DNA of 24,000 nt from Candidatus Hodarchaeum mangrovi (lineage in GTDB: Archaea > Asgardarchaeota > Heimdallarchaeia > Hodarchaeales > Hodarchaeaceae). The translations under genes were made by a program, and so were the position numbers. Shown here in pieces: positions 1 through 20,336 of this stretch. Each line of letters begins with the position of its first letter. Position 1 is the stretch's first letter. The stretch lies in contig JAEOUE010000183.1 in the NCBI GenBank assembly GCA_016839515.1, positions 626 through 24,625 on the forward strand. The letters run 5' to 3'. The notes beneath the pieces were generated by a model. That model saw only the letters and a list, made by a program, of their open reading frames with translations, ran no database searches and was not told the DNA's origin.

Positions 1-984
1 ACCAAAGCCGAATCCTGCGACTAAAAGGGGGATTGTCACGAATAATAGGTTTGTGATTAATGGTGTAGCGGTAATACCTATACCCACACAAGTTACCCCT
101 AAAATCATATTCATTCTATAGCCTATCAACCTAGCAATTCTCACTGTTAATAGACGACTAATTATTGCACAAAAGTCTCTCACGGCAAGGAGGCTACCTA
201 TTTCTAAAGAAGCCAATCCTAATCCCTTGAGAAATAAAGGATGAAATGAAACTACCACACCATAGCTTAATGACATGAGAAAAGATCCAATGGTTGCTAG
301 TTTTATGTTTCTTTTGCTTCGAAAAAGACAGATAGCCTTGGAATAACTCTCCAGAATTCCCTTTTTCTCATGAATGACTACTTTATTAAATTCTCGAACT
401 CGTGCTTTGCGATTCTCCTTTAAAAGAGGAAACGTTGAGAAAAATCCTACCATAGCGAGACATGTAAAAGCTAAAAAGACGGATTCATAACCTATTTGAT
501 CAATAAACCATCCAGCAATCGGTGGGCCAACTAACTGACCTAATCCTGTAACTGTTAAATATTGTCCCAATAATGTAGGTCGTTCACTGTCACTTCCCAT
601 TTCTGAGATATATGCAGGTTCTGTTACGCGAAATGATGCTGCTGTAATTCCCCAAAACATCTGTGCAGGTAGAAATAACAGAACTTGTTGTGTGATCATA
701 CTGATAAAGAATGTTACTCCTGATGCCAATCCAAGTACGAATGTTACTCCATAAAAGAGCTCCCAACCAAACCTATCAGCCCCTTCTCCAAGAGGTATCC
801 GAAATCCTGTTTGAATTATCATCCTTATGCTAACAATCAATCCGACTATAGCTGTTGTTGCTCCTAATGTGGTAGCTGCTAAAGGTATTGTGGGACTTAG
901 TAGACCCAACATAGTAGTATACAAAGTTCCAATCCAAATTATTAGCATAAGATCTTTATTCAATCTATATTATTACCTCTTTCA
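1..984 (-). CDS. MFS-family transporter, N-terminal ~328 codons (3' end runs off the left edge of the window)
   Basis: Not in the supplied ORF track. I reverse-complemented and translated 1-1023 by hand. The frame is stop-free from the in-frame TGA at 1026-1024 down to position 1. ATG at 984-982 gives MKEVIYRLNKDLMLIIWIGTLYTTMLGLLSPTIPLAATTLG...; an alternative ATG lies at 948-946. The product has successive hydrophobic helices, an MFS motif-A-like loop (GEGADRFGWE, i.e. G-x-x-x-D-R-x-G) and a basic central loop (KENRKARVREFNK). It is co-directional with the upstream dipeptidase genes, 66 nt after the stop of the first. Confidence 0.75.
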
Positions 985-1050
985 TTTTTCTTTCTAGTAA
1001 TATAGTTAAAGATTTCCATAAATCTCACGATGGAGTCATTAAATGGGAAT

Positions 1051-2121
1051 TTAGCCTATTACTCTTTTCATGAGATGCATCGCATTTCCAGCTACGATTT
1101 TTTCTATCTCCTGGTCACTATAACCTCTAGAAACTAAACCACGGATGATATTTGGCCATTCCTCAGGACTCTCAATTCCTCTCATATACGGAGCATTTAA
1201 GGTTTGCCCTGTACGTTCCAAAAAGAAGATTGATTTAGCTGCTTGACGATGATATTCAACTTGATCCTCAAAAACATTATCTAATCCTATTGCACATTTA
1301 TCATTACCTATTAAATCAACAATATAGTCAATATGATTTAAGAGGTCATCAATACTTTGCACTGATTTATTGCTTAGCTGATTGGGAATAGCAGAGACTC
1401 CAGCAATCCCCTTTTTTTCAGCTAGAGCCATGAGCTCTTCGTCGGTCTTTAAGCGTTTACATTGAGGATTTAAGGCGCGTGCTCCCACATGATTGGCAAT
1501 TACTGGATCTTTGGAGACCTGAATTGTGTCAAGTGTTGTTTGGACTCCAACATGGGATAAATCAATTAGCATCCCAATCTTATTCATCTGTTCGACTAAA
1601 TTAATACCGAAATATGATAACCCTTCATTTGTTCTTTCACCACATCCATCGCCTGCATATGTCCGCGTATTGAATGTAAGCAGAGCCATCCTAATTCCAA
1701 GTCCATAGGCAACTTCTACATTTTCTAGATCTTTACCAAAAGTCTGAGGTTCAAGCTGAAACATTATAGCTATCTTCTTCTCCTTCTTAGCACGTCTAAA
1801 GTCGTCAGCTCTGAAAGCAACCATAAAATCTGGATGTTTTATTGCACGTTGCATTAGATATCCTAATTCGTTCATCGATTGCTGAAAGTTTTCGTGAATT
1901 CCTGCAATAGCCTCTACGAATCCAGTTACACCAGAATTCTTTATTCTGGGTACAATGAAGTCTTCATCAGGCAGGATGTGCGAATGAAGGTCAATTGTTA
2001 CTATTTTTTTGTGTAATTCCTCAGCCCGTTCTTCTTCTGCTTTATCAAGTTTAACTAAGCGTTCTTTCAGAGGAAGCTTCAAATATTCGTTTAATGGAAG
2101 CATATTATACATTCCTATCAA
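1051..2121 (-). CDS. M19 (renal/membrane dipeptidase family)-like metallohydrolase, paralogue A1
   Basis: Collinear by-eye match to human DPEP1 along the whole length. TIDLHSHIL aligns with IDGHNDLP. FQLEP aligns with the bridging Glu of GVEGG. GLSYFG..MNKIGMLIDLSHVG aligns with GLSPFG..LNRLGVLIDLAHVS. PVIANHVGAR aligns with PVIFSHSSAY. AIGLDNVF aligns with GFGGDFDG. GYSDQEIEKIVAGNAM aligns with NWTEAEVKGALADNLL. The track start is TTG 2121. ATG 2103 (MLPLNEYLKL, AGGA 9 nt upstream) fits the paralogue N-termini better. Confidence 0.85.
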   Translation of the reverse strand: MIGMYNMLPLNEYLKLPLKERLVKLDKAEEERAEELHKKIVTIDLHSHILPDEDFIVPRIKNSGVTGFVEAIAGIHENFQQSMNELGYLMQRAIKHPDFMVAFRADDFRRAKKEKKIAIMFQLEPQTFGKDLENVEVAYGLGIRMALLTFNTRTYAGDGCGERTNEGLSYFGINLVEQMNKIGMLIDLSHVGVQTTLDTIQVSKDPVIANHVGARALNPQCKRLKTDEELMALAEKKGIAGVSAIPNQLSNKSVQSIDDLLNHIDYIVDLIGNDKCAIGLDNVFEDQVEYHRQAAKSIFFLERTGQTLNAPYMRGIESPEEWPNIIRGLVSRGYSDQEIEKIVAGNAMHLMKRVIG

Positions 2122-2156
2122 TTTATATTGGGATAGGAGGAGAAAATAAATTCCTA

Positions 2157-3236
2157 CTACCCGATAACTTTTTCAATGATTTTTAGCGCGTTCCCCCCGA
2201 TTATTTTTTGAATCTCTTCATCAGAATATCCTTCTGAGACTAAACCACGAACTATATTTTTCCATTCATGTGGACCTTCTAAACCGAAGAGGAAATCACC
2301 TTTAAGCTGTATCCCAGATTTATCAAAATTCCTAGAAGCCGCATTTTTTCTATGACCAGCCACCTGATCACGAAATACGTTATCTAGACCAATAGCGACA
2401 TAATTGATACCGACTAGGTTTACACAGTGGTTAATATGTTTAAGATGGTCTTCGATTCCTTGATTAACATCGAAAGAGAGTTGATTAGGGATTCCACTTA
2501 TGCCAATTAACCCTTTTTTCTCTGCGATAGCCTGTAATTCCTCGTCTTCTCTTAAACGTTTACATGGTGGATTTAGAGCTCGTGCACCCGCATGATTAAA
2601 TACACAAGGGTCTTTTGAATAGTCAATAGCATCCAAGGATGTCTGTATTCCACAATGGCTCAAATCTATTAACATTCCAATTTTATTCATACGATCCACA
2701 ATTTCTAAACCAAAATAACTTAAGCCTATATTAGTTCTTTCAGCAATACCATCGCCAATATAATTTCTAGTATTGAAAGATAATAAAGCCATCCTTATCC
2801 CAAGTCCATATGCTATATCTACATTATCTAAGTTCTTTCCGAATGTATTGGGTTCTAATTGAAAAAGTACTGCCTGTTTCCCTTCTTCCTTTGCTTTCAG
2901 TATATCTTTAGCTTTATAAGCTGGCATCAGACTTGGTTCTTTCTCAGTGATAGCTAGATACCTGCCTAGAAGATTCATGGATTCAGAAAAATCCTCTGAA
3001 AGCGCTGGAACAGCTTCAAAACAGCCTTCAACGCCCATTTGATGAACTAGGTTCATTTTTTCCTCATTCCACTCGAAAATTACTGATCCATAGATATGTG
3101 TATGTAAATCAATTTTCAATGATCTTTTAAAAAGTTCCTCGGCTCGTTCAGCCTCTGATGGGCTCAATTTGATGTATTTTTCTTCTTGTGGAAGTTTTAG
3201 ATATTCTTCACGTGAAAAACCTCTGTTTGGCATCAA
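2157..3236 (-). CDS. M19-like metallohydrolase, paralogue B1
   Basis: Same M19 architecture: DLHTHI, FQLEP, LIDLSHCG, CVFNHAGAR, IGLDNVF, GYSDEEIQKIIGGNAL. Subtype-B markers: HTH, FEAVP, SHCGIQTSLDAI. The likely true start is ATG 3233, with GAGGT 8 nt upstream, rather than TTG 3236. Confidence 0.85.
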   Translation of the reverse strand: MMPNRGFSREEYLKLPQEEKYIKLSPSEAERAEELFKRSLKIDLHTHIYGSVIFEWNEEKMNLVHQMGVEGCFEAVPALSEDFSESMNLLGRYLAITEKEPSLMPAYKAKDILKAKEEGKQAVLFQLEPNTFGKNLDNVDIAYGLGIRMALLSFNTRNYIGDGIAERTNIGLSYFGLEIVDRMNKIGMLIDLSHCGIQTSLDAIDYSKDPCVFNHAGARALNPPCKRLREDEELQAIAEKKGLIGISGIPNQLSFDVNQGIEDHLKHINHCVNLVGINYVAIGLDNVFRDQVAGHRKNAASRNFDKSGIQLKGDFLFGLEGPHEWKNIVRGLVSEGYSDEEIQKIIGGNALKIIEKVIG

Positions 3237-3263
3237 TTTCTACCTCTTTTAAGTTCAAAAAGA

Positions 3264-4316
3264 TCAACCTATAACCCTTTCAATTATAGAAAGAGCATTT
3301 CCTGAGAGAATTTTTTCAATATTCTGATCACTGTATCCCCTTTGAACTAACCCCCGAGTGATATTAGCAAACTCCTCTGGATTTTCAATCCCATACATAT
3401 ACGGGGCATTTAATCCTTGTCCAATGTATGAAAGTTTAAAGATTTGTTTAGCTTGTTGACGATGGTAACCAACTTGGTCTCCGAATACATTATCAAGTCC
3501 AATAGCAACGTTATTAATACCAATCAGGTCAACCATATAATCAAGATGATTTAATAGGTCGTTTATCCCTTGTTCTTCTTCACTACTTAGTTGATTGGGA
3601 ATAGCAGAAACTCCTGCAATCCCACCTTTCTCAGCTATTGCTTTGAGTTCTTCATCAGTCTTTAACCGTTTACATTGAGGATGTAATGTGCGTGCTCCTA
3701 CATGGTTTGCAATAACTGGACTTTTAGATACTTCAACCGTATCCAGCGTAGTTTGGACACCTACATGCGAAAGATCGATCAAAATCCCAACCTTGTTCAT
3801 TCTATCAACCAAGTCTATACCAAAGTAAGACAATCCCTCATTGGTTCGCTCTCCACATCCATCACCTGCATAAGTTCGAGTGTTAAATGTAAGAAGAGCC
3901 ATTCTTACTCCAAATCCAAAAGCAAAATCTACATTGTCCAAGTTTTTACCAAATGTTTGAGGTTCTAATTGAAACATTACAGCCATTTTTCCCTCCTTTT
4001 TTGCTCGTTTGAAATCCTCCGCTCTCAAAGCGAGCATAAACTCTGGATGTTTATTCAATTTAGTTCTAAAAGACCCTAATATATTCATCGATTCTTGAAA
4101 ATCTTCAGTTACACCGGCAATTGCTTCAATCCAGCCGCAAACTCCTGAATTTTTGATCCGATCTAGGATAAAATACTTATCCATTAGAATATGAGAATGC
4201 ATATCTATTGAAATTAATTTTTTGTGTAATTCTTCGGCTCGTTCTTCCTCTACTTTGTCTAACTTAATAAAACGTTCTTTCAAGGGCAATTTCAAATATT
4301 CTTCTCTAGAAATCAA
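3264..4316 (-). CDS. M19-like metallohydrolase, paralogue A2
   Basis: Close paralogue of 1051-2121. Shared strings include EEERAEELHKK, HSHIL, MFQLEPQTFGK, RMALLTFNTRTYAGDGCGERTNEGLSYFG, LIDLSHVGVQTTLDT, PVIANHVGAR, PQCKRLKTDEEL and GIAGVSAIPNQLS. TTG start at 4316 with AAGGAGG about 9 nt upstream. Confidence 0.85.
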   Translation of the reverse strand: MISREEYLKLPLKERFIKLDKVEEERAEELHKKLISIDMHSHILMDKYFILDRIKNSGVCGWIEAIAGVTEDFQESMNILGSFRTKLNKHPEFMLALRAEDFKRAKKEGKMAVMFQLEPQTFGKNLDNVDFAFGFGVRMALLTFNTRTYAGDGCGERTNEGLSYFGIDLVDRMNKVGILIDLSHVGVQTTLDTVEVSKSPVIANHVGARTLHPQCKRLKTDEELKAIAEKGGIAGVSAIPNQLSSEEEQGINDLLNHLDYMVDLIGINNVAIGLDNVFGDQVGYHRQQAKQIFKLSYIGQGLNAPYMYGIENPEEFANITRGLVQRGYSDQNIEKILSGNALSIIERVIG

Positions 4317-4328
4317 AAATATTCCTCC

Positions 4329-5399
4329 TTAACCAACTACTTTCTCAAGTATTCGTAACGCATTTCCGCCAATTATTTTGTCTACCTCTTGGTCACTGTA
4401 TCCCCTCTTAATTAATCCCCTAATAATATTGGGCCAGTCACTCGGAGACTCTAGACCATAAATATAATCCGCTGCAAGGACTATCCCTGCACGCTCCAAG
4501 TTAACTGTTTTTTCAGCTGCCATTTTTCTATGGAAAGCTACTTGGTCATGAAATGTGTTATCTAAACCTATTCCTACATGATCAACTCCCACTAGATTCG
4601 CAATATATTCAATATGGTTTAAATGATCCTCAATACTCTGTTCGGGTTTGCTAGACAATTGGTTGGGAATAGCAGAGATACCAATCAGCCCACCCTTCTC
4701 TACCAATGCTTTTAATTCCTCATCGGTTCTTAATCGCCCAACTGGTTCATTTAAAGCTCGGGCTCCTGTATGATTGAACAGACATGGGTCTTTGGAATGG
4801 TCAATTGCGTCTAGTGCAGTTTGAACGCCACAATGGCTGAGATCAATCAATATTCCAGCGTTGTTCAAACGTTCTACTAACTCAAGGCCCAAGTAACTGA
4901 GTCCTGCATTGGTTTTTTCTCCACAACCGTCGCCAATGTATGTTCGTGTGTTAAAGGTAAGGAGAATCATTCTAAATCCTAGCCCATAGGCAACATCTAC
5001 CAGGTCGAGATTTCGTCTGCCACTCCATGGTTCCAGCTGATACAAAATAGCCTGTTTGTTTTCCTTTTTAGCCTTTTTGATGTCTGCAGCGGTAAAAGCA
5101 GACACTAATCCCGGTTCTTTCTCGACAATACTACGATAGCGTCCAATTATTGCTGTTGTCTCGGCAAAATCTTCATTTAAGCATGGAACAGCTTCAAAAC
5201 ATCCATCAATTCCAGAATTTTCGACTAATTTTCTAATATTCGCATTCCACTCGAAATGGATCGAACCAAATATGTGGGTATGCAAATCGACTTTAATACT
5301 CTTTGAGAAGAGTTCATCAGCTCTTTCTTTTTCAGAAGGACTGAGTTGAATAAATCTCTCTTCAGGACTAAGAGAGAGATACTTGTCTCTAGATATCAT
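4329..5399 (-). CDS. M19-like metallohydrolase, paralogue B2 (first gene of the minus-strand operon)
   Basis: Motifs DLHTHI, YQLEPWSGRRNLDL, LIDLSHCGVQTALDAI, CLFNHTGAR and IGLDNTF. ATG at 5399 with GAGGT 8 nt upstream. Only 12 nt separate it from the next gene. It is the closest relative of the plus-strand copy at 12025-13077. Confidence 0.88.
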   Translation of the reverse strand: MISRDKYLSLSPEERFIQLSPSEKERADELFSKSIKVDLHTHIFGSIHFEWNANIRKLVENSGIDGCFEAVPCLNEDFAETTAIIGRYRSIVEKEPGLVSAFTAADIKKAKKENKQAILYQLEPWSGRRNLDLVDVAYGLGFRMILLTFNTRTYIGDGCGEKTNAGLSYLGLELVERLNNAGILIDLSHCGVQTALDAIDHSKDPCLFNHTGARALNEPVGRLRTDEELKALVEKGGLIGISAIPNQLSSKPEQSIEDHLNHIEYIANLVGVDHVGIGLDNTFHDQVAFHRKMAAEKTVNLERAGIVLAADYIYGLESPSDWPNIIRGLIKRGYSDQEVDKIIGGNALRILEKVVG

Positions 5400-5602
5400 C
5401 CTTAAATACCTCTAATGTTCGATAATGTTGGCAAAATTTATTTTTTTTATTTTTTCTTAAATTTTTCCATTAATTACTTTATAAATCGAAAAGCCTTTAC
5501 GGAAAGTTTTTTACTTATAATGAAAATTAAATAACGTTCTCCCAATAATATCGATTTCTTTTGTTATGGAGGAATCACAAAAAATAAATTGGTGAAAACA
5601 AA
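5400..5602. promoter_or_regulatory. Divergent intergenic region, probable promoters for the dipeptidase operon (-) and the ABC importer (+)
   Basis: A 203-nt very AT-rich gap between divergently oriented first genes. It contains TTTATAAA (5478-5485) and TATAAT (5516-5521). GGTGA (5591-5595) lies 7 nt before the TTG start at 5603. No transcription start can be assigned from sequence alone. Confidence 0.4.
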
Positions 5603-7315
5603 TTGTTGTTCATAAAAAATAGAAAAAATAATCTATATCTAAAAATTGGAGTTTTGGCACTCCTTTTAGTCCTATCTTCGTTCTCAGCAATCCCTATCAG
5701 AGCTCAGGAAAAGTCACGATTTGAATTTAAGCTAATTTACGGTGCTGGACGTTATGCCATGGACAAACAGATAGTAGAAACTGTTCAATCCTTTTTGGCT
5801 GACATTGATGTCAAAATGACTATTGAATCTAGGGATTGGGCTTCCTTCTCTGCTGCTCAAAGAGAAAGTAACATAACAAAGTTAACGGAAGATTACCAAG
5901 CATGGTTCGTAGGTTTCGGGAACCCCTGGATGAATGCAGATGGTGCGCTTAAGAATTTCATCTCTCAAAGAGGATTAGAGCCTCTTTTCTACAATAATTC
6001 TTATTTCGATCAATTATTTGTCCAGTCTCGGAAAGAATCCGATGAAACAGAGCTAATGAAACTCTATAAAGAAATGAATGATATTGTTATGACAGATGCT
6101 CCATGGATTTTCCTTGCAATTGAACCTAATCTTCATGCTGCTCAAGGAGTCCAGGGCCTAACGACATGGCATGATGAGTCAGTAATCGTCTCTGATGCCT
6201 ATTCTACAACATCAAATGACACTTTAACTCTTTCTCTTGGAACAGAACCATCAAAGTTCGATCCACAACATACATCAGGAATGTCCAACCTTGGTATTAT
6301 TCGACTCGTAACAGAGACTCTTGTTAGTTTAGATCAGGAAACTGGGGATGTCGTACCAGTATTAGCAACTTCGTGGGAAACTGATAATGAAGCAGAGAAC
6401 TGGACGATCCATATTCGTCAAGGTGTAAAGTTTCATGACGGTAGTGAGTTAACAGCAGAAGATGTAAGATACACACTTTGGGATCGATTATCGTCTCCAG
6501 ATAGTGGTGCTTTAGCCCAAGCATCCTTCGGTCCTCCAAGTGGTCCTATAAAGAATATTACAGTTGTTGACACATATACAGTAAAAATCGAGACCATTGG
6601 ATTCGCAGCATTAATGCCTTTCTTCAATTATCAGCCCTCAGAGATTGTTTCGAAGGCAAAATGTTTAGAATTATATAGAGAAAATGAAACAGTGCCTGGA
6701 GAAGATTTCCAGACTGATCCTTCTGGTACGGGCCCATATAAGTTTGTCGATTGGGTTAAAGGGGATCATATTACATTGATACGGAATGAGAATTATTGGG
6801 GTGAAAAACCAGCTTTCCAGACAATTATCATGAAAAAGATTACAGACTCCACATCTCGAGTTTCTGCGTTACTTGCTGGTGATGTGAACTATATACATCA
6901 AGTCCCTACAACTTCCGTTGCTACATTAATAGCAGATCCTGATGTCTACCTTATCAAAGCCGCTGAAGTTCGTATGATGCATATTGGTTTGAATCTTGAT
7001 TTTGATATCTTCAAAAACAGGAAAGTAAGACAAGCTATAAACTATGCTGTTAATCAGACCAAAATGGTTGAAACAATTTACGAAGGTTACGGATCACCCA
7101 TGATAGATACTATGATGTCTCCCAGCTCTTACGGGGTTCAACAAGGTAATATTAGCTATTCACAAGACGTTGAAAAGGCTAAACAACTCCTAGATGAGGC
7201 TGGATATACCGTTCCTAAAGAATCTGTTCCTGGATTTGATTTTCAAATCATGTTGATCGGAGTGATCTTTGCTGCTGGCCTAGGAAAGCGATTCCATCGT
7301 AAGCTAAGGAAATAA
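5603..7315 (+). CDS. ABC transporter substrate-binding protein, family 5 (Dpp/Opp type), apparently circularly permuted, with an N-terminal signal peptide and a C-terminal TM anchor
   Basis: N-terminus is MLFIKNRKNNLYLKIGVLALLLVLSSFSAIPIRA|QE: a positive n-region, a hydrophobic core and an AxA-like cleavage site, with no lipobox Cys. Family-5 SBP motifs present: TLTLSLGTEPSKFDPQ, ATSWE..NWTIHIRQGVKFHDGSELTAEDV, GTGPYKFVDW, ENYWGEKP, VRQAINYAVN and EKAKQLLDEAGY. The usual C-terminal block (DWASF, FVGFGNPW, YNNSYFDQL, LYKEMNDIVMTDAPWIFLA) lies upstream of these motifs. The protein ends with FDFQIMLIGVIFAAGLGKRFHRKLRK, a hydrophobic stretch plus a basic tail. TTG start with GGTGA 7 nt upstream. 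Confidence 0.85.
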   Translation: MLFIKNRKNNLYLKIGVLALLLVLSSFSAIPIRAQEKSRFEFKLIYGAGRYAMDKQIVETVQSFLADIDVKMTIESRDWASFSAAQRESNITKLTEDYQAWFVGFGNPWMNADGALKNFISQRGLEPLFYNNSYFDQLFVQSRKESDETELMKLYKEMNDIVMTDAPWIFLAIEPNLHAAQGVQGLTTWHDESVIVSDAYSTTSNDTLTLSLGTEPSKFDPQHTSGMSNLGIIRLVTETLVSLDQETGDVVPVLATSWETDNEAENWTIHIRQGVKFHDGSELTAEDVRYTLWDRLSSPDSGALAQASFGPPSGPIKNITVVDTYTVKIETIGFAALMPFFNYQPSEIVSKAKCLELYRENETVPGEDFQTDPSGTGPYKFVDWVKGDHITLIRNENYWGEKPAFQTIIMKKITDSTSRVSALLAGDVNYIHQVPTTSVATLIADPDVYLIKAAEVRMMHIGLNLDFDIFKNRKVRQAINYAVNQTKMVETIYEGYGSPMIDTMMSPSSYGVQQGNISYSQDVEKAKQLLDEAGYTVPKESVPGFDFQIMLIGVIFAAGLGKRFHRKLRK

Positions 7316-7389
7316 ATCATAGATCAGCTAAACATTATTTGGACTATAAGTGATTCTCGATTAAACTATCGATTCATCGCCCTCTATTT

Positions 7390-7423
7390 GTTATCCCCAT
7401 TATTTTGGGGATAACAGTTTTTT
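7390..7423 (+). terminator. Intrinsic (hairpin + T-run) terminator/attenuator downstream of the SBP gene
   Basis: Perfect 9-bp stem GTTATCCCC (7390-7398) / GGGGATAAC (7407-7415). The 8-nt loop is ATTATTTT. The stem is followed by AG and TTTTTT (7418-7423). It lies 75 nt after the SBP stop codon. Confidence 0.7.
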
Positions 7424-7805
7424 ATTGAAAACCATTGAAAGGAACTATAGTATAACCAAGTTTATAGTTATCGTTCTAGTACTCAGCTCTCTTAAAAAAT
7501 CCATTTCTGCTCTAATAATATATGACATATAGCTTATGTAACTGAAAGTTTACATTAGTATAAATTTAGAGACTAGAAAAGGAATTGAATAAGAAAAATT
7601 AATAATTATAGAGGTATTATAAAGGATTCAAGCGAGAAAGAAGTAATATCTCTCTGAAAACACATTTAATCATTTAAATATTGATTAGGACCACAAATTG
7701 GTTTAAGTATTTTCTATTTTTCCCATATAAGGAGAAGAATACAAAAATAAATAATAAAACTAACAAAAGATAATCATTCGTAAGTAAGAATCGCAGGTAT
7801 ATCTA

Positions 7806-8852
7806 ATGGATGAAAATAAGCCATTATTAAGGGTGAAAGATCTTTCCACGCATTTTTTCACATATACTGGAGTAGTTAAGGCACTAGACGGTATAAACTT
7901 AGAGATAATGGGAAAGAATGATTCACTAGGTCTTGTGGGGGAGACAGGTTGTGGTAAAAGCGTCACAGCGTTATCGATCTTACAGCTGATTCCAAGACCT
8001 CCAGGACGTATCGTTAATGGTGAAGTTTGGTTCAATGGTGAAGATCTATTGAAGAAAAATGAGAGGTACATGCAACGAGAAATAAGAGGCAAAAGGATAT
8101 CTATGATATTTCAAGAGCCAATGACATCACTTAATCCTGTTATTCGTATAATAGATCAAATCACAGAGGCTATCTTACTTCATCCAGAAATAAATGGAAA
8201 TGAAACACCTTCTTTGTCTAAATATGATGATATGCCCAAATCTGAACGTGAAAAGATTAAAAAAGAAGCTAAAAAACATGCTATTGAACTACTTGATCTG
8301 ACAGGCATCCCAGATCCTGAGGAGGTAGCAGAAAGATACCCACATCAATTAAGCGGAGGAATGCGACAACGTGTGATGATTTCAATAGCTCTAGCATGTA
8401 ACCCACAGCTTCTCATTGCTGATGAACCCACGACATCACTTGATGTTACGATTCAAGCTCAAATATTATCTTTAATTAAGAAATTAAGGAAAAAATTTGG
8501 AATATCACTATTGCTTATTACTCATCATTTAGGTTTAATTTCCGCAATGTGTAACCAAGTTGCAGTGATGTATGCAGGTACAATCGTTGAATATACAGAC
8601 CTTAGATCCCTCTTTAGAAATCCGATTCATCCTTACACAAAAGGTTTATTAAAGTGTATCCCACGATTAGGAGGAGAGAGAGGAATAAAACTTAATACAA
8701 TTCCTGGGATGGTACCAGATCTAATAAATCCTCCAACAGGATGTAGATTCCACCCTCGTTGCAAAGAGAGGGGTTCAGAATGCGGAAAAAGTAAACCTAA
8801 GTTTATCGAAATAGATAAAGGGCACTTTGTTGCCTGCAACAAATATCATTAG
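7806..8852 (+). CDS. Oligopeptide/dipeptide ABC transporter ATP-binding protein (OppD/DppD type)
   Basis: Walker A GETGCGKS, signature LSGGMRQR and Walker B LLIADEPTTSLD. The Opp/Dpp-specific C-terminal extension is present (HPYTKGLL ... GCRFHPRC). ATG start. Confidence 0.92.
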   Translation: MDENKPLLRVKDLSTHFFTYTGVVKALDGINLEIMGKNDSLGLVGETGCGKSVTALSILQLIPRPPGRIVNGEVWFNGEDLLKKNERYMQREIRGKRISMIFQEPMTSLNPVIRIIDQITEAILLHPEINGNETPSLSKYDDMPKSEREKIKKEAKKHAIELLDLTGIPDPEEVAERYPHQLSGGMRQRVMISIALACNPQLLIADEPTTSLDVTIQAQILSLIKKLRKKFGISLLLITHHLGLISAMCNQVAVMYAGTIVEYTDLRSLFRNPIHPYTKGLLKCIPRLGGERGIKLNTIPGMVPDLINPPTGCRFHPRCKERGSECGKSKPKFIEIDKGHFVACNKYH

Positions 8853-8886
8853 TCAGTATATAAGATGTTTCTGGCCTTAATATTGG

Positions 8887-8902
8887 ATATATACGTATAT
8901 AT
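8887..8902. repeat. Perfect 16-bp palindrome ATATATACGTATATAT between the two ATPase genes
   Basis: Checked base by base: the sequence equals its own reverse complement. It sits 7 nt upstream of the GGTG Shine-Dalgarno (8910-8913) of the downstream gene. Confidence 0.6.
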
Positions 8903-8920
8903 GAAAAAAGGTGTTATATT

Positions 8921-9901
8921 TTGCAAGAAATCTTATTACAGGTTAGTCATTTAAAAACCTATTTTCCAATCAGGGCAGGAATCTTAAAAAGAACAGTGGG
9001 CTGGGTAAAAGCAGTTGATGATGTCAGCTTTGACATCAAAAAAGGGGAGATCTTAGGATTAGTAGGGGAGTCAGGGTGTGGAAAAACAACGGTTGGTAGG
9101 GTTATTCTGATGTTAGAGAATCCAACATCAGGAGAAATTTTATTCAATGGAAAAGATATAACGAAAATGAAGAAAGACGCATTGAGAAAGCATAGACGAC
9201 AAATGATGATGGTTTTTCAAGATCCTTTTTCTTCATTGAATCCTCGAATGACAGTGAAAAGAATAGTAGGGGAACCACTTATCATTAATAAGTATTGTTC
9301 TAAGCATGAGAGCAAAAACAGAATTGTAGACCTATTAGGAAAAGTAGGTTTAAAGGAAGAGCACCTCAATCGCTTTCCTCATGAGTTTTCAGGAGGACAA
9401 CGTCAACGGATCTGTGTAGCACGTGCGCTTGCCTTAAATCCAAGTTTAATAGTTCTTGATGAACCAACTTCGGCACTAGATGTTTCAGTTCAATCCCAAG
9501 TCCTCAATTTGTTCAAAGAACTATTATCAGAGTTCGGTCTTTCTTACTTATTTATCTCTCATGATCTGGCAGTAATCAAATATATGAGTGATAGGATATG
9601 TGTAATGTATGTTGGTAAAATAGTAGAACAAGGTTATACAGAAACGATCTACCAAGAACCAGCACACCCCTATACAAAGGCATTAATGTCGGCAATTTTA
9701 GAACCAAACCCTGAATATGAACAAGAACCCATTATACTCAAGGGAGATGTACCTAGTTCATCAAATCCTCCTTTAGGATGTAGATTCCATCCTCGTTGTT
9801 GGCTAGCAAAACCTGTATGTAGTGAAAAAGAACCACCTTCTGTTAATGTAGGAAATAAACATTTTGCTTCTTGTTGGGCTTTAGAAAAAGATTGGGATTG
9901 A
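8921..9901 (+). CDS. Oligopeptide/dipeptide ABC transporter ATP-binding protein (OppF/DppF type)
   Basis: Walker A GESGCGKTT, signature FSGGQRQR and Walker B LIVLDEPTSALD. C-terminal HPYTKALM ... GCRFHPRC. TTG start with GGTG 7 nt upstream. Confidence 0.92.
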   Translation: MQEILLQVSHLKTYFPIRAGILKRTVGWVKAVDDVSFDIKKGEILGLVGESGCGKTTVGRVILMLENPTSGEILFNGKDITKMKKDALRKHRRQMMMVFQDPFSSLNPRMTVKRIVGEPLIINKYCSKHESKNRIVDLLGKVGLKEEHLNRFPHEFSGGQRQRICVARALALNPSLIVLDEPTSALDVSVQSQVLNLFKELLSEFGLSYLFISHDLAVIKYMSDRICVMYVGKIVEQGYTETIYQEPAHPYTKALMSAILEPNPEYEQEPIILKGDVPSSSNPPLGCRFHPRCWLAKPVCSEKEPPSVNVGNKHFASCWALEKDWD

Positions 9902-9958
9902 CTGAATAGATAAAAAAAGAATAAATAAGAATTATCATCAAAGATGACGTGAAGAAAA

Positions 9959-10876
9959 TTGATTGAGAAAAATAATGTCCTAGAAAAAAAACCGAAGACT
10001 TCAAGGTTACCTCTGACATTGTATAAATTTCAGAAGAATAGGCGCGCATTATTTGGATTTATTGTTCTTGTGATAATTTTTATTATTGCTGTTTTTGCTT
10101 TAGATCCTTGGGGACACCCTTTATTAGCACCCTATAATCCATATGGACATCTTCCAACCTCAGAACGATTAGATCGCAGAGCTGAAAAGCCTTCTGCGCA
10201 ACATCTCTTAGGACTCGATGAACTTGGAAGGGATCTCCTTAGCAGAATTATGGTTGGCTGTCGAATCTCGATTACAATTGGATTCGTTTCTGTTTCTATT
10301 GCTCTAATTTTTGGTATGTTTATTGGATCCATTTCTGGTTATTTTGGTAAGTGGGTTGATCATCTTCTAATGCGGATTATAGATATTATGATGGCGTTTC
10401 CTGCATTTCTATTAGCACTAATGATCATTGCAATCTTAGGCCCATCACTACAAAATGCAATGGTTGCTATTGGTATTGCTTTAATACCAGTGTATGCACG
10501 ATTAACTCGAGGGCAAGTTATTTCAATAAAAGAAAACGATTATGTTGAAGCAGCAAGGATGGTGGGAGCTAGAGACTGGAGGATTATTTTATTGCATATT
10601 TTACCTAATGCCACTGCTCCTCTTATCGTCCAATCAACCCTCAATTTTGCTAGTGCAATACTCTCAGCAGCAGCACTAGGTTATTTAGGCCTTGGAGCCC
10701 AACCACCTACACCAGAATGGGGGGTCATGTTAAGTGATGGAAGACTATATTTATTGGCAGGAGCAACCCATTTATCTTTGTTTCCTGGACTTGCGATTAT
10801 GATTACTGTACTAGCTTTCAACCTAGTCGGAGATGGCCTCAGAGATGCCTTCGATCCAAGAATGGTGAGTGAATAA
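9959..10876 (+). CDS. ABC transporter permease (DppC/OppC type)
   Basis: N-terminal TM helix followed by an extracytoplasmic loop with HLLGLDELGRDLLSR. EAA-loop region is YVEAARMVGARDWRIILLHILPNATAPLIV. C-terminal GDGLRDAFDPR. Multiple TM helices. TTG start. Confidence 0.9.
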   Translation: MIEKNNVLEKKPKTSRLPLTLYKFQKNRRALFGFIVLVIIFIIAVFALDPWGHPLLAPYNPYGHLPTSERLDRRAEKPSAQHLLGLDELGRDLLSRIMVGCRISITIGFVSVSIALIFGMFIGSISGYFGKWVDHLLMRIIDIMMAFPAFLLALMIIAILGPSLQNAMVAIGIALIPVYARLTRGQVISIKENDYVEAARMVGARDWRIILLHILPNATAPLIVQSTLNFASAILSAAALGYLGLGAQPPTPEWGVMLSDGRLYLLAGATHLSLFPGLAIMITVLAFNLVGDGLRDAFDPRMVSE

Positions 10877-11889
10877 TGTCATTTGTATCTTTTTTGATTA
10901 GGAGGCTACTTTTAGTAATTCCAGTTCTTTTAGCAGTTTCTTTCATTGTTTTCTTCATGATTCGATTAATTCCTGGAGATCCTGCCCTCCTTCTTGTTCC
11001 GGAAGATGCTCCACCAGAGCAAGTTGATTACCTTCGTGAAAGATGGGGATTAAATGATCCAATTCATGAGCAATTTTTAAGGTTCTTAGTAAATATCTTA
11101 AACGGGGATCTTGGAAAGTCAATTCGGACTGGCCGACCCGTTATTGAAGAAATCCTACCACGATTTACCAACACAATATTTTTGGCAAGTTCGGCCTGTT
11201 TAATAGCTATACTTGTCGGCGGATTTGCAGGGGTTATTTCTAGTGTAAAGCCTTACTCGAAAATAGACAACTTTGCAATGATAGGGTCAATGGTAGGTGT
11301 ATCTGCTCCAGCTTTCTGGCTTGGCCTGATGATGATGTGGATATTAGCTGTTGAGCTAAATTTACTCCCCGCGGTTGGTACTGGCAATTATACTCACCTA
11401 TTTTCTCTTATTCCAGGATTAATTTATCCTCTGGGTTCAACACTATCAGAATTTCTCGATGAGCTATTAAATTGCATCAAGCATCTAGTTATGCCAGCGG
11501 TCACTCTTTCAGCATTTCTAATGGCTGTTATTGCACGACAAACCCGTTCTTCTATGTTAGAGGTCTTGACTAGTGATTATATCAGAACGGCACGAGCAAA
11601 AGGAGCACCTAGACCACGAGTAATTGTTTATCATGCATTAAAGAATGCAATGATTCCGGTTCTTACAGTAGCAGGAGTTGCATTTGGTTCTATGTTAGGA
11701 GGTTCCATTATTGTAGAGAAGGTATTTGAGTACAATGGCTTGGGACAATATATGATAGATTCAATTCACACTAGAGACTATCCTGTTATACAAGCAGTGA
11801 TTCTTTGGTATGCTCTTATCTTCACTGTAGTTAATCTAATTGTAGATGTCATTTACGGATGGTTAGATCCCCGAATAGTCTATGAGTAA
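10876..11889 (+). CDS. ABC transporter permease (DppB/OppB type)
   Basis: N-terminus is FLIRRLLLVIPVLLAVSFIVFFMIRLIPGDP. The conserved loop is YIRTARAKGAPRPRVIVYHALKNAMIPVLTV, and the C-terminus is DVIYGWLDPRI. The ATG overlaps the upstream stop by one base (TAATG at 10874-10878), which implies translational coupling. Confidence 0.9.
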   Translation: MSFVSFLIRRLLLVIPVLLAVSFIVFFMIRLIPGDPALLLVPEDAPPEQVDYLRERWGLNDPIHEQFLRFLVNILNGDLGKSIRTGRPVIEEILPRFTNTIFLASSACLIAILVGGFAGVISSVKPYSKIDNFAMIGSMVGVSAPAFWLGLMMMWILAVELNLLPAVGTGNYTHLFSLIPGLIYPLGSTLSEFLDELLNCIKHLVMPAVTLSAFLMAVIARQTRSSMLEVLTSDYIRTARAKGAPRPRVIVYHALKNAMIPVLTVAGVAFGSMLGGSIIVEKVFEYNGLGQYMIDSIHTRDYPVIQAVILWYALIFTVVNLIVDVIYGWLDPRIVYE

Positions 11890-12024
11890 ATCTAAATCAA
11901 TTTAAAATTTAGAAAAATTTAATAAAACATCGTAATATTGTTGAAAAGTTATTAGCTATCAAATCTTATAAGAAGACTTGTAAGGAAAGAAAGGTGAATA
12001 AAAATATTACCTAGAAATGAATAT

Positions 12025-13077
12025 TTGCAGCTCTCTCGTGAGGAGAGATTCATTAAATTAGATTCAGTGGAAATCGAACGTGTAAAAGAGATTTTCGAGA
12101 AAAATTATACTATCGATATGCATACTCACTTTTTTGGGAGCATTCACTTTAAATGGACACCAGAAATTAGTGAGAGAGTTAAACAGTCTGGGATTAATGC
12201 AGGCTTTGAAGCTGTGCCATGCCTGGCGGAAGATTTTACGGAAACTACGGCCATCATTGGCCAATATCGTAGCATCGTTGAGAAAGAACCAGGTTTAGTC
12301 TCAGCATTTACGGCCGCAGACATCAGAAAAGCGAAGAAGGAAGGCATACAGGCTATCTTATATCAGCTTGAGCCGTGGAGCGGCAGACGAAATCTCGACC
12401 TGGTAGATGTAGCCTATGGCTTAGGATTCCGAATGATCCTTCTCACATTTAATACTCGAACCTACATAGGCGACGGGTGTGCGGAAAAAACCAATGCAGG
12501 ACTTAGCTATTTGGGGTTGGAATTAGTAGAACGCCTGAATAGCGCTGGCATCCTGATTGATCTGAGTCATTGTGGGATCCAGACCTCACTGGATGCCATT
12601 GAGCATTCCAAAGATCCCTGCCTGTTTAATCATACTGGAGCCCGTGCTTTAAACCCACAAGTAAAACGATTAAGAACCGATGAGGAGCTACAAGCTATTA
12701 CTGAGAAGGGTGGGATGATTGGCATCTCTGCTATCCCTAATCAATTGTCTAGCAAACTCGAACAGAGTATTGAGGATCATTTGAATCATATTGATTATGT
12801 TGCCGATTTAGTAGGTACAAACCACATGATGATTGGCTTAGATAATGTATTCGATGACCAAGTTCAAAATCATAAAGAAATGGATAAAAAAAGTAAAGGT
12901 CTTAATCGGAAACGAGACGGTATGGTTTTAGTAGCACCATACATCTATGGATTAGAAGCACCAGATGAATGGGAAAATATAGTAAGAGGATTGGTAAAAC
13001 ATGGATATTCAGATTCAGACATCAAGAAAATCATTGGTGAAAACGCTCTTAAAATTATCAAACAAGTTGTAGGATAG
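12025..13077 (+). CDS. M19-like metallohydrolase, paralogue B3 (inverted relative to the other four)
   Basis: Motifs DMHTHF, YQLEPWSGRRNLDL, LIDLSHCGIQTSLDAI, CLFNHTGAR and IGLDNVF. It is near-identical to 4329-5399 over the central barrel. The start is uncertain. TTG 12025 is the first canonical start, but paralogue-conserved residues (..PRNEYL) continue in frame upstream to the stop at 11995-11997. Confidence 0.85.
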   Translation: MQLSREERFIKLDSVEIERVKEIFEKNYTIDMHTHFFGSIHFKWTPEISERVKQSGINAGFEAVPCLAEDFTETTAIIGQYRSIVEKEPGLVSAFTAADIRKAKKEGIQAILYQLEPWSGRRNLDLVDVAYGLGFRMILLTFNTRTYIGDGCAEKTNAGLSYLGLELVERLNSAGILIDLSHCGIQTSLDAIEHSKDPCLFNHTGARALNPQVKRLRTDEELQAITEKGGMIGISAIPNQLSSKLEQSIEDHLNHIDYVADLVGTNHMMIGLDNVFDDQVQNHKEMDKKSKGLNRKRDGMVLVAPYIYGLEAPDEWENIVRGLVKHGYSDSDIKKIIGENALKIIKQVVG

Positions 13078-13103
13078 AAAAAGCTGAAAGATGGGATGAG
13101 ATA

Positions 13104-14519
13104 ATGATTGAGGATAAAAATGAAATTACATTAGGGGAGAAATTTGCACGATATGTAATTGAAACAGACTTTGATAACCTACCACAATCTGCTGTAAAAA
13201 GAGCTAAAAGTATTGTTTTTGATTTTGCTGGTATCGCATTGTCAGGATATGGGACTCATCATCCAATGATTAAGAGCCTTATAAGTTACGCCCGTGCAAA
13301 AGTAGCCAAAGAAGAAGCAACGATTCTAGGTGCAGGTACACAAACCAGTGCAGAAGATGCAGCTTTTACAAATAGTGTACTGTCTAACTTTCTAGATTCA
13401 AGCGATGGACACTATATGGGAGGGCATATCAATGATCGTGTAGTTCCAGTAGCTCTTTCAGTAGCAGAAAGTGTGGCAGCAAGTGGGAAAGATTTTCTAA
13501 CAGCGGTTGTTCTCGGTTATGAGGCATATATTAGATTATCTTATGTCCTATTTCGTTCAGCTGAAGCTGCATCGACAAAGAGGAGCCCTATGTTTGTCGT
13601 ACTTTCTACTCTTTCGAGTGTTATTCCTGCGGGGAAACTTCTGGGGTTGAATGCTGAACAAATTTCGGGTGCAATGGGATTAGCTGCATCAGCACAGATC
13701 GTAGGTTCACAATATACAATAAGTGGAGGAAATGAGAAGGATCTTGTCTGTGGACAAGAATCTAGACGAGCTGTAATGGCAGCATTCCTAGCAAAATATG
13801 GAATCACAGGCTCTAAAGATATATTAGAAGGAAAAAGAGCTGTTGGTAAAGTTATTTCAGATAATTGCAATTGGGATGAGTTCTTGGAGAACTTAGGTTC
13901 ACCTGAAAGTTTCAAAATAATGGAAACTTATTTTAAACCTTGGCCAGCCTGTAAATTTTTGCACTCGACTATTGAAGCAGCTTTGAACTTGGTCCATGAT
14001 AATCAGGTTAATTCTGAGCAAATTAATGAAGTAATAATCAAGTTGAACTCTGATTCTGCAAGAAGGTCTGCATTCAAGTTTTACTCTCATGTTAATGCGA
14101 TATTCAGTCATCCATATCAAGCAGTAACAGTTTTAGTAGATGGTAAACCTGATCTTCCTATTAAATGGTCAGAAAAGTTGCAAGATCCTAGGATTGTAGC
14201 ACTTTTAAAGAAAACAAAAGTAGCAGTGGACGAAGAATTCGAAAAAATGTATTCAACAAGGACAATAGAGGGGGGTACTTGGCCTTCGACAGTAGGTGTA
14301 AAACTAAAGGATGGACGATATTTGGAGTCAACAGTAATGTCCCCAAAGGGAGATCCCACAGTTCCCATGTCTGATGATGACCTTAAAATAAAAATTGCGA
14401 GCTTATCCCGAGGAGTTTTAGATTACAATCGGATTGAGAAGATATACGAGATAATTCAAGACCTAGAACAAGTTAAGGATATAAGATCCTTTACAAAGAA
14501 CTTAGTTTTACCAACCTAG
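13104..14519 (+). CDS. MmgE/PrpD-family protein (2-methylcitrate dehydratase superfamily; substrate unknown)
   Basis: Characteristic N-terminus: LGEKFARYVIETDFDNLPQSAVKRAKSIVFDFAGIALSG. The 471-aa length and the mid-protein ETYFKPWPACKFLHSTIEAAL block are both typical of the family. It begins 26 nt after the preceding gene. Confidence 0.82.
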   Translation: MIEDKNEITLGEKFARYVIETDFDNLPQSAVKRAKSIVFDFAGIALSGYGTHHPMIKSLISYARAKVAKEEATILGAGTQTSAEDAAFTNSVLSNFLDSSDGHYMGGHINDRVVPVALSVAESVAASGKDFLTAVVLGYEAYIRLSYVLFRSAEAASTKRSPMFVVLSTLSSVIPAGKLLGLNAEQISGAMGLAASAQIVGSQYTISGGNEKDLVCGQESRRAVMAAFLAKYGITGSKDILEGKRAVGKVISDNCNWDEFLENLGSPESFKIMETYFKPWPACKFLHSTIEAALNLVHDNQVNSEQINEVIIKLNSDSARRSAFKFYSHVNAIFSHPYQAVTVLVDGKPDLPIKWSEKLQDPRIVALLKKTKVAVDEEFEKMYSTRTIEGGTWPSTVGVKLKDGRYLESTVMSPKGDPTVPMSDDDLKIKIASLSRGVLDYNRIEKIYEIIQDLEQVKDIRSFTKNLVLPT

Positions 14520-14532
14520 GAGATAAAAAGAA

Positions 14533-15492
14533 TTGAAAACGCTAGTCGAAATTTTCGAATCAAACCTGAAACAGTGTGCTAATCTTCAGCCCAACGAATC
14601 AGTTTTAGTAATGTCGGATTTTGAACAAACCTCTGAGATTCCCTTATCCATAGTTAAGGCTATAGAAAAATTGCAGGCTAGACCATTATTGATTATAATG
14701 GAAAAAAATCTCTTGAAAGAGAAAGGGATATCGAAGTCTTATCAACAAGTAATGAATGAAGCTGATTTAATTGTAATATGTACTTCTGATTATTTCCCTG
14801 GAGAATCTCGCGTCATCGCTACACAAGCAGGTTCTCGAATTCTTTCAATGGTTAAAGCCGATGAGAATATGATTAGACGTTGTATAGATATCGATTATAA
14901 TGAACTCTCAAAGCTTACACGGAAAGTAGCTGATAGGTTCTCTGAAGCAAAAGAAATTAACATCAAGAGCGACTCTGGAACAGACATTTATTTTAGACCG
15001 AGTGGCAATAAAGCCTTTTATTTTGATGGCCTCTGTAGAGAAAAGGGAAAAATCACATCACATCCTTCAGGTGTAGTTGCTGTCGCTTTAGAAGAGAATC
15101 AAGCAGAAGGAACGTGGGTTATAAATGCTAGCGCTGCTAAACTAGGTTTAGTTGATCCACCAATAACTATTGAGGTGACTGAAGGTGTAGCAAAAATAGT
15201 AAGCAATTCAGAGCAAGCTGATCAATTCCAAAAGATTTTATCTGCTGGTGATGATAATTCATGGAAAATTTGTGAGGTTGGTTGTGGAACAAATGCTAGA
15301 GCTACCTACATTGGGGAATTGATTGAAGATGAAAGAGTACAAGGATCTGCTCATATAGGATTAGGAGGTAATACTCACTTTGGGGGAAAGATACAAAGCA
15401 TTTCTCATATTGATACATCTACGAGGAATCCTACTGTCATATTGGATGGATTCGCGATTATTTCCAAAGGAAATTTAAATCGCGAATTATGA
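14533..15492 (+). CDS. M29/AmpS (aminopeptidase T)-NicX superfamily metallohydrolase-like protein
   Basis: The C-terminal metal-site pattern is typical of the thermophilic-metalloprotease fold: CEVGCGTNARA...EDERVQGSAHIGLGGN...SISHIDTS (E, H and H-x-D). At 319 aa it is shorter than classical AmpS (~410 aa) and closer to NicX-sized members. TTG start with AGGAGA 9 nt upstream. Confidence 0.6.
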   Translation: MKTLVEIFESNLKQCANLQPNESVLVMSDFEQTSEIPLSIVKAIEKLQARPLLIIMEKNLLKEKGISKSYQQVMNEADLIVICTSDYFPGESRVIATQAGSRILSMVKADENMIRRCIDIDYNELSKLTRKVADRFSEAKEINIKSDSGTDIYFRPSGNKAFYFDGLCREKGKITSHPSGVVAVALEENQAEGTWVINASAAKLGLVDPPITIEVTEGVAKIVSNSEQADQFQKILSAGDDNSWKICEVGCGTNARATYIGELIEDERVQGSAHIGLGGNTHFGGKIQSISHIDTSTRNPTVILDGFAIISKGNLNREL

Positions 15493-18438: not shown

Positions 18439-18622
18439 ATCCTATTTAAAAGTATGATTTCATTCAATAATCATCTGATTGATAATCTGCAGTATATAAC
18501 CAGCTTCTTGTGGCATTTAAGTTTACTGGATTAATATAATAAAATAAAAAAGCAGAGATGTTATGCCATACAGGAAGGAATTTTTTTATTTAACATTCTT
18601 TATTTAATTATGGTGCCTTTAG

Positions 18623-20333: not shown

Positions 20334-20336
20334 TTA

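Follow-up and report, generated by a model that had tools for sequence, protein, structure and literature searches.

The closest described counterparts of the gene island considered here are the Dpp/Opp/Nik importers, the renal dipeptidases of the M19 family, the enzymes of the MmgE/PrpD family, and the metalloenzymes that share the fold of NicX and of the M29 aminopeptidases. Recognition of peptides by DppA is achieved by Asp408, which pairs with the free α-amino group of the peptide, and by Arg355, which binds the carboxylate; the iron of NicX is held by the triad of His265, His318, and Asp320. In DPEP1 the binuclear zinc site is formed by His20, Asp22, Glu125, His198, and His219, and Arg230 binds the inhibitor cilastatin (PMC9305348). 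The MmgE/PrpD family has four strictly conserved residues, which in the cis-aconitate decarboxylase hCAD are D93, H103, K207, and K272 (PMC6789909); in every characterised member they bind a C4 1,4-dicarboxylate and assist the transfer of a proton at C2 (PMC12290011). The island is located in a 24,000-nucleotide stretch of DNA from Candidatus Hodarchaeum mangrovi (assembly GCA_016839515.1, contig JAEOUE010000183.1, positions 626 to 24,625 of the forward strand), which was analysed over its whole length and is referred to below as the window. The organism is one of the Asgard archaea, the closest prokaryotic relatives of eukaryotes, whose physiology is known mostly from genome inference and from a few peptide-fermenting cultures.

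A preliminary description of this DNA had listed an MFS carrier, five M19-like hydrolases, an importer, a PrpD-family enzyme, and an M29/NicX-like enzyme; gene calling from a map of open reading frames (ORFs) and Pfam scans recovered every one of them at the places given there, the NicX-like ORF by structure and profile matches. We propose that the genes of the island work together as a single module, able to move between lineages, which imports a small amide bearing a carboxylate and breaks it down in the cytoplasm. The substrate would most likely resemble a di- or oligopeptide and be N-blocked, acidic (of the aspartyl or succinyl type, perhaps with D configuration), or both; we assign this reading a probability of about 0.55. 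It builds on observed gene content, active-site conservation, synteny, co-inheritance, and sharing between domains. A search of the literature found no characterised cluster of this kind.

Four of the M19-like genes form a minus-strand operon with the MFS gene, running from paralogue d (4329–5399; PF01244, 224 bits), the first gene, through paralogues c (3264–4316; 228 bits, 73% identical to paralogue a) and b (2157–3236; 204 bits) to paralogue a (1051–2121; 228 bits, motif D-L-H-S-H), with gaps of 12, 27, and 35 nt. After a further 87 nt follows the last gene, for a carrier resembling anion:cation symporters (1–963; PF07690, E 2e-29), whose 3′ end, and with it the C-terminal portion of the carrier, falls outside the window; its best NCBIfam match is the D-galactonate transporter subfamily, far under the cut-off. 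An AT-rich divergent intergenic region (5400–5602) separates this operon from the plus-strand genes, and the divergent layout is kept in the homologous loci L001–L004 (loci compared carry L-numbers and genomes of the Asgard sample G-numbers; G000 is the window genome, whose contig C119, of 24,752 nt, is the window plus 752 nt). On the plus strand lie the genes for a family-5 (SBP_bac_5) substrate-binding protein (SBP; 5603–7315), two Opp/Dpp-type ATPases (7806–8852 and 8921–9901; ABC_tran with an oligo_HPY tail), two permeases (9959–10876 and 10876–11889; BPD_transp_1 with OppC_N), the fifth M19-like protein (paralogue e; 12025–13077; 204 bits), a MmgE/PrpD-family enzyme with N and C domains (13104–14519; PF03972 and PF19305), and a 319-residue NicX/M29-fold metalloenzyme of an uncharacterised family (14533–15492). 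The importer is complete, with its SBP, two permeases, and two ATPases; a 490-nt spacer separates the SBP gene from the ATPase genes, and a gap of 135 nt lies between the permeases and the fifth M19 gene. The sole conserved element of the spacer, in five Asgard loci, is a hairpin just 3′ of the SBP gene (7390–7423, plus strand), with a 9-bp stem that varies by compensatory changes across those loci and is followed by a T-run; an Rfam search of the window matched no family, the hairpin included. It is probably an intra-operon attenuator or terminator that damps read-through into the ATPase genes, and the earlier picture of tightly packed transcription units needs correction accordingly in one respect, in that the plus-strand side is probably split after the SBP gene.

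The nearest relatives of the M19 genes (75–86% identity) are found in metagenome-assembled genomes labelled Promethearchaeota, Hermodarchaeota, Thorarchaeota, and Heimdallarchaeota, two of which were placed by genome search in the same genus as the window genome; this marks the host as an Asgard archaeon. Five Asgard relatives are syntenic with the window: an MFS gene, four to six M19 genes, a divergently oriented SBP gene, the ATPases and permeases, and then M19e, the PrpD-like gene, and the NicX-like gene. This arrangement of MFS gene, M19 array, importer, M19e, PrpD-like gene, and NicX-like gene was seen in L001–L004, L009, and L084–L088; the ATPases and permeases are syntenic in L001–L004 at 66–89% identity, and the MFS gene occupies the same place in L001–L004 and L009 at 48–72% identity. 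Contigs of 165 and 304 kb from genomes of this genus also bear the island; in the window genome it takes up nearly all of contig C119.

The core of the island is also present in three bacterial genomes, two of Anaerolineae and one of Thermotogae, in the order [Lrp/AsnC]-SBP-permease-permease-NicX-like-[M20]-two or three HxH-M19-[flavodoxin-like]-PrpD-like-SDR, with identities to the window proteins of 56–67% (M19), 46–48% (PrpD-like), and 35–38% (NicX-like). The M20 enzyme is of the ArgE/DapE deacylase type, and the Lrp/AsnC gene lies directly 5′ of the SBP gene in L008, L092, and L097. MBL-fold (metallo-β-lactamase-fold) genes found upstream of the clusters in L092 and L097 encode proteins with no detectable similarity to the window MBL at E 1e-8. 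Clusters L006, L008, L093, and L097 contain genes for the SBP and two permeases and no ATPase genes; many Opp/Dpp ATPases are encoded elsewhere in these genomes, which have 14–25 matches to Opp/Dpp systems, and the bacterial modules presumably borrow ATPases from them. The association was also recovered from an independent seed, in which metagenome contigs were searched with the NicX-like alignment alone and loci of at least 34% identity extending beyond the gene were counted: an HxH-M19 gene stood beside the NicX-like gene at 11 of the 12 loci, and the long ones had permeases upstream and a PrpD-like gene downstream.

Among 201 evenly sampled Asgard genomes, close NicX-like homologues (63% identity or more) occur only in G000, G107, and G144, close PrpD-like homologues occur in exactly the same three, and so do M19 arrays of five or six copies; G180 has one M19 copy, which DUF362 and MBL genes flank. 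In the remaining genomes of the genus (80–93% complete) neither a NicX-like nor a PrpD-like gene was found, with an M19 copy in G180 only, and among 301 Chloroflexota genomes a close NicX-like homologue was found only in the one already known. The matching phyletic patterns mean that lineages acquire or lose these genes together; the set is rare and patchy. The preliminary description had argued for one dedicated unit and had named a lack of conservation in related genomes as evidence to the contrary; the association recurs in five further Asgard genomes, in Chloroflexota and Thermotogota, and on metagenome contigs, so that across two domains of life the genes are kept together, and the view of a dedicated functional unit holds. 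M19 homologues at 30–40% identity (in Acidobacteriota, Paraburkholderia, and others) were set aside as uninformative on the module, since none of the neighbours is shared and most lack the HxH motif.

At 36.2%, the island is richer in GC than 99.3% of the genome's 20-kb windows (mean 32.8%; 32.9% for the whole genome). Because it is rare, patchy, and atypical in GC, the island was probably acquired horizontally. The GC excess, the restriction to part of one genus, and the presence in at least two bacterial phyla suggest that transfer was probably into the archaea, although the M19 tree described below, being unrooted, does not itself fix the direction. The same figures bear on the possibility that functionally unrelated genes lie side by side by chance, or that binning assigned the contig wrongly: it measures just 24,752 nt, its GC content is high for the genome, and genome contamination is put at an estimated 6%. 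Set against these, the occurrence of the island on the long contigs of same-genus genomes, the conservation of gene order across domains, and the strict co-inheritance of the genes make this explanation extremely unlikely and largely refute it. The island is real and is inherited as a unit.

All five M19-like proteins match PF01244 with 204–228 bits against a cut-off of 26. They had been called diverged paralogues; the count of five stands, and at pairwise identities of 53–73% their divergence is not great. In all five, and in nearly all orthologues, the family motif H-x-D is absent and the proteins carry D-x-H-[ST]-H, in which His replaces Asp22; the remaining binuclear-site residues, Glu (in Q-L-E-P), His (in D-L-S-H), and His (in N-H-x-G-A-R), and the strand-8 Asp are present in all five. 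An Arg in the motif R-L-(K/R)-x-D, set opposite Arg230 of DPEP1 by eye, is invariant in 43 members of the clade, so the scissile amide probably lies beside a free carboxylate. The solved structure nearest to paralogue d is 2i5g, an uncharacterised protein named 'amidohydrolase' (E 1.5e-38). One further PF01244 gene, of canonical type, is present on another contig of the window genome.

A maximum-likelihood tree of 48 M19 proteins, unrooted, resolves two ancient types: type I includes window paralogues a and c, and type II paralogues b, d, and e, so named in the coordinates above. Support is 99/99 for the archaeal type I group and 99/99 for the whole type II group; bacterial type I sequences lie beside the archaeal ones, and the archaeal sequences cluster together within each type. 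Both types are represented in each complete cluster, whether bacterial or archaeal. This pattern fits a single passage between the domains of a module that already had the two types, followed by tandem amplification in the Asgard genus, where the order alternates II-I-II-I. The two types may form a heteromer, or each may supply a specificity that is needed alongside the other. Both keep the catalytic motifs, except for a small type I offshoot that lacks the second His. Type I copies with a partly lost metal site are found in L002 (11102–12208), L087 (3305–4396), L005 (770–1876), and L093 (13550–14617); three of these four read D-L-H-S-L, and one reads D-I-H-T-C, with G-L-E-P replacing Q-L-E-P. 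Such copies may be non-catalytic subunits or decaying duplicates. At the 5′ end of paralogue e, the conserved N-terminal sequence I-K-I-L-P-R-N-E-Y is encoded in frame upstream of the TTG at 12025, the first canonical start, and no ATG, GTG, or TTG occurs between the TGA at 11995 and that codon.

The SBP has an unusual order of segments. Its signal peptide is followed by the C-terminal lobe segment, then by the N-terminal two-thirds, and finally by a hydrophobic and basic tail of the PGF type, and the match to PF00496 starts only at residue 250. BLASTP comparison with the canonical orthologue of L001 (4785–6512, minus strand, at the same syntenic position) aligned window residues 204–552 with L001 residues 37–383 and window residues 21–200 with L001 residues 362–540, at 62–64% identity, real similarity in the second segment starting near window residue 38. 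The SBPs of L002–L004 are permuted in the same way, and those of L001 and all bacterial orthologues are canonical. The window SBP is, from its sequence, a clean circular permutant in which the signal peptide and the PGF-type tail have stayed at the ends; duplication within the gene, with later deletion of the outer halves, would account for it. A P-G-F motif with a hydrophobic stretch and a basic tail is an archaeal anchoring mode for such proteins, and is found on the SBPs of the window (7223–7315) and of L001; a tail of the same type occurs on the molybdopterin protein described below (18346–18438). Archaeosortase A (TIGR04125) was not found in the window genome, which is 91% complete; the single match to the exosortase family PF09721 (C169, 9416–9706) may represent the protein that processes these tails.

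When canonical archaeal and bacterial orthologues are aligned with DppA, at 25–29% identity and with a possible error of one residue, Pro or Val (in the context G-W-G-N-P) occupies the position of Asp408 (mature numbering; 436 in the precursor), and an invariant G-A-G-R motif stands at or next to the position of the carboxylate-binding Arg355. These residues suggest a ligand with a carboxylate and without a free ammonium group. The nearest solved relatives of the SBP bind varied ligands: oligopeptides, agropinic acid, agrocinopine, glutathione or haem, and nickel chelates. The inclusion of the opine-binding proteins AgaA and AccA among them raises the alternative that the island takes up or recycles a metal chelator (a nickel/cobalt-type opine or a citrate-amide metallophore), whose polycarboxylate ligand would be dismantled by the hydrolases and the PrpD-like enzyme. 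The best NCBIfam matches of the SBP are NikA, GsiB, Opp5A-NikA, and CntA, the MFS carrier weakly matches the metallophore exporters CntE and FslB, and PrpD-family enzymes act on polycarboxylates (PMC12290011). However, these NCBIfam matches are all far under the curated cut-offs, the regulator is of the Lrp/AsnC type and not a metal sensor, no biosynthesis genes are nearby, and five or six amidohydrolases would be hard to account for, so that this alternative appears very unlikely.

The SBP residues also bear on the simplest reading of the locus, a general peptide-scavenging neighbourhood in which an ordinary Opp/Dpp importer and assorted peptidases serve normal L-peptides, and the PrpD-like and redox genes are metabolically separate passengers. 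The transporter and three hydrolase families are indeed of peptidase type. Against this, the SBP lacks the Asp that would bind an α-amino group, the genome has its separate canonical M19 gene elsewhere, and the PrpD-like gene is inherited along with the others, in 3 of the 201 genomes, and lies inside the cluster in both domains; we regard general scavenging as unlikely.

The PrpD-like protein is not an orthologue of the 2-methylcitrate dehydratase PrpD, since it scores 35–38 bits with the NCBIfam PrpD equivalogs against cut-offs of 458–950. The nearest PDB entries are CAD/IRG1 and iminodisuccinate (IDS) epimerase, at E about 1e-22. Residues D98, H108, K212, and K278 are invariant in nine orthologues and align to D93, H103, K207, and K272 of hCAD. 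At the position of hCAD His159 the orthologues have Pro or Lys/Arg (within an invariant R160-x-P162), and at that of His277 they have Cys283; lacking equivalents of these two catalytic His residues, the protein is not a cis-aconitate decarboxylase. Aspartate is itself built on a 2-substituted succinate, as are its N-substituted derivatives, iminodisuccinate among them. By analogy with IDS epimerase, which acts on an N-substituted aspartate, the enzyme might catalyse epimerisation or elimination at C2 of an aspartyl unit still bound in an amide (Xaa-Asp or N-acyl-Asp) and, together with the paired HxH-M19 enzymes, allow its hosts to live on acidic peptides of aged necromass that are racemised or N-blocked, a specific proposal that we consider a long shot. 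If true, it would add a new enzymatic route and a new ecological resource for sediment anaerobes, Asgard archaea included, spread by inter-domain transfer and amplified to five to seven hydrolase copies in one Asgard genus.

The 319-residue ORF has no Pfam match even at E 10, PF02073 included. It matches NicX (PDB 7cn3) with E 7e-10, and with E 3e-23 when a profile of eight orthologues is used; a Foldseek search with its AlphaFold model (pLDDT 65) returned NicX first (E 1e-18) and then PepS, AmpT, and AmpS (E 1e-10 to 1e-12). The earlier label 'M29/NicX-like' is right at the level of the fold; the NicX iron triad is not kept, and the ligand pattern bears more resemblance to that of M29. E248, E265/D266/E267, H274, H292, and D294 are invariant in the eight orthologues; the equivalents of NicX His318 and Asp320 are kept as an H-x-D pair, and NicX His265 aligns to the invariant Glu248. 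The invariant E/D/E and His residues recall the two-metal pattern of M29. Profile comparison with the M29-like gene of the same genome gave a weak match (7.6% probability), in which the motif I-x-E-x-G-x-G-T-N lines up. Function as a NicX-type dioxygenase is rejected on the replacement of one iron ligand by Glu, and the lineages that carry the island are anaerobic; the residue pattern points to hydrolysis rather than ring-cleaving oxygenation.

Distant NicX-like proteins (32–35% identity) are encoded in L101–L103 and L105 beside genes for S-Me-THD-like proteins, hydantoinase A, an Asp/Glu/hydantoin racemase, an NCS1 permease, and a nitroreductase, which ties the wider family to cyclic-amide metabolism. 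These neighbourhoods support a pathway for a carboxylated cyclic amide or heterocycle (a hydantoin, lactam, dihydropyrimidine, or diketopiperazine), in which the HxH-M19 enzymes would open the ring and the M20, CE4, and NicX-like enzymes would process the product. Cyclic amidohydrolases usually have H-x-H as their first-strand motif, β-lactam rings are opened by both M19 enzymes and MBL-fold proteins, and an MBL-fold gene is linked to the island. The importer, however, is of the Opp/Dpp type and not NCS1, the hydantoin-type clusters lack M19 and PrpD genes, and their NicX-like proteins are no more than 32–35% identical, which leaves a cyclic substrate unlikely.

The preliminary description ended the island at 15492; the conserved block reaches about 20.8 kb and includes a gene for an Lrp/AsnC regulator of its own. 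Downstream of the NicX-like gene every Asgard relative, L089 included, has genes for a CE4-fold deacylase, an Lrp/AsnC regulator, and a PPOX-class oxidoreductase; most also have DUF362/Fe-S and small MBL genes, and L085 and L086 have the molybdopterin protein. The same accessory genes occur in the window at 15519–20801, in an order rearranged relative to L084, L087, and L088, and it is on this basis that the island is taken to be about 20.8 kb long. The CE4 and Lrp genes lie directly 3′ of the NicX-like gene in the relatives, unlike in the window. The first accessory gene in the window encodes a PPOX-class small oxidoreductase of the FMN/F420 type (15519–15932, minus strand; PF01243, TIGR03668-like below the cut-off), found beside the island in L084–L089, and is followed by a DUF362 protein with an inserted 2x[4Fe-4S] domain (16185–17348, plus strand; PF04015 with Fer4), copies of which adjoin the island at 66–86% identity in L085–L089 and L005. 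The exported molybdopterin oxidoreductase domain protein of the sulfite-oxidase/MsrP family (17626–18438, plus strand; PF00174) has a second, 66% identical copy on C40 of the window genome, and the small MBL-fold hydrolase (18623–19240, plus strand; PF00753) has copies in L005, L084, L087, and L088 (67–78% identity). On the minus strand lie the genes for the CE4 (polysaccharide-deacetylase fold) de-N-acylase-like protein (19332–20333; PF01522, E 1e-10), which adjoins the NicX-like gene in L084–L089 (53–75% identity), and for the Lrp/AsnC protein (20337–20801; HTH_24 with AsnC_trans_reg), which stands beside the CE4 gene in all Asgard relatives. The latter is likely the regulator of the island; the Lrp/AsnC family typically senses amino acids. 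An M19 fragment comprising only the C-terminal third (54% identity) lies between the PPOX and MBL genes of L084 (5899–6270), and the full type I gene of L005 mentioned above (770–1876) lies between DUF362 and MBL genes, so M19 copies have moved or decayed within the accessory block.

The module is accompanied by de-N-acylases in bacteria and archaea alike, though not of one family: the archaeal ones are CE4 enzymes, and those of some bacterial clusters are M20 enzymes of the ArgE/DapE type. Taken together, the evidence from the SBP, the M19 Arg, the PrpD-like enzyme, the de-N-acylases, the NicX-like enzyme, and the Lrp regulator favours a carboxylate-bearing, N-blocked and/or acidic peptide-like amide. 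That the substrate would be an unusual amide rather than an ordinary dipeptide had been suggested earlier, and is made likelier by the absence of the DppA Asp, the conserved PrpD-like residues, and the accompanying de-N-acylases. We infer the substrate class, the order of steps, and the chemistry of each enzyme as follows. The compound would be taken up by the Opp/Dpp-type ABC importer through an SBP that lacks the Asp for a free amino group; it would be unblocked by a de-N-acylase (CE4 in archaea, M20 of the ArgE/DapE type in some bacterial clusters) and trimmed by the NicX/M29-fold metalloenzyme. The type I and type II HxH-M19 enzymes, as a heteromer or as two sequential specificities, would then cleave the amide beside the free carboxylate, and the PrpD-family enzyme would carry out C2 proton chemistry (epimerisation, elimination, or dehydration) on a 2-substituted succinate, or aspartyl-like, moiety. 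The Lrp/AsnC regulator would control the unit, and the archaeal MFS carrier would move an organic-acid product or the substrate. The best substrate of the Streptomyces M19 enzyme Sco3058 is reportedly an L-Xaa-D-Asp dipeptide, and by analogy peptides containing D-Asp are an attractive guess for the specific substrate.

Several points weigh against the proposed module for a peptide-like amide. No enzyme of the module has a characterised homologue that is closely related; the SBP residue argument depends on the low-identity alignment with DppA and could shift by one residue; and the His159 equivalent, conserved in CAD and in IDS epimerase, is absent from the PrpD-like protein. The hydantoin-type clusters of distant NicX-like proteins point to cyclic amides over linear peptides. 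The bacterial clusters have no ATPase genes of their own, and the accessory genes are domain-specific (M20, SDR, and flavodoxin in bacteria; CE4, PPOX, DUF362, MBL, and MFS in archaea), so the pathway may not be identical in both domains.

As a testable accessory module common to Asgard archaea, Chloroflexota, and Thermotogota, the island brings together three enzyme branches without a characterised member: the HxH-type M19 enzymes, this branch of the PrpD family, and this branch of the NicX/M29 fold. The identity of the substrate would give functions to all three, and would reveal the organic matter for which these sediment organisms compete. The SBP offers a natural experiment in protein topology as well, with canonical and permuted orthologues occupying one genomic position.

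Compared with known systems, the importer shares the five-component architecture and all domain families with Dpp/Opp/Nik importers such as E. coli DppABCDF and NikABCDE; it differs in the permutation of its SBP (in the window and L002–L004), in its probable anchoring by a PGF-type tail, and in the absence of the α-amino-binding Asp. The M19-like proteins share with the renal dipeptidase family (DPEP1, Streptomyces Sco3058, and fungal GliJ) their Pfam membership, the bridging Glu, both second-metal His residues, the strand-8 Asp, and the carboxylate-binding Arg, whereas they have H-x-H in place of H-x-D, Phe at the position of DPEP1 His152 (by eye), a conserved extra N-terminal helix of about 35 residues, and genes that occur in obligatory sets of types I and II with two to seven copies. 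The 319-residue protein resembles NicX and the M29 aminopeptidases (AmpS, AmpT, and PepS) in fold and in the H-x-D pair aligned with NicX His318 and Asp320; it differs from NicX in having Glu for His265, and from the M29 enzymes, of about 400 residues, in its length and in the lack of a PF02073 match. The PrpD-like protein has the two-domain fold and the four strictly conserved residues of iminodisuccinate epimerase, IRG1, methylsuccinate isomerase, and Bacillus subtilis YxeQ, whereas it is only about 20–25% identical to any characterised member and lacks equivalents of hCAD His159 and His277. The yxe operon, in which yxeQ is found, resembles the island in placing a PrpD-family gene beside an ABC importer and, as in the bacterial clusters described here, an M20 deacylase gene (PMC9706529).

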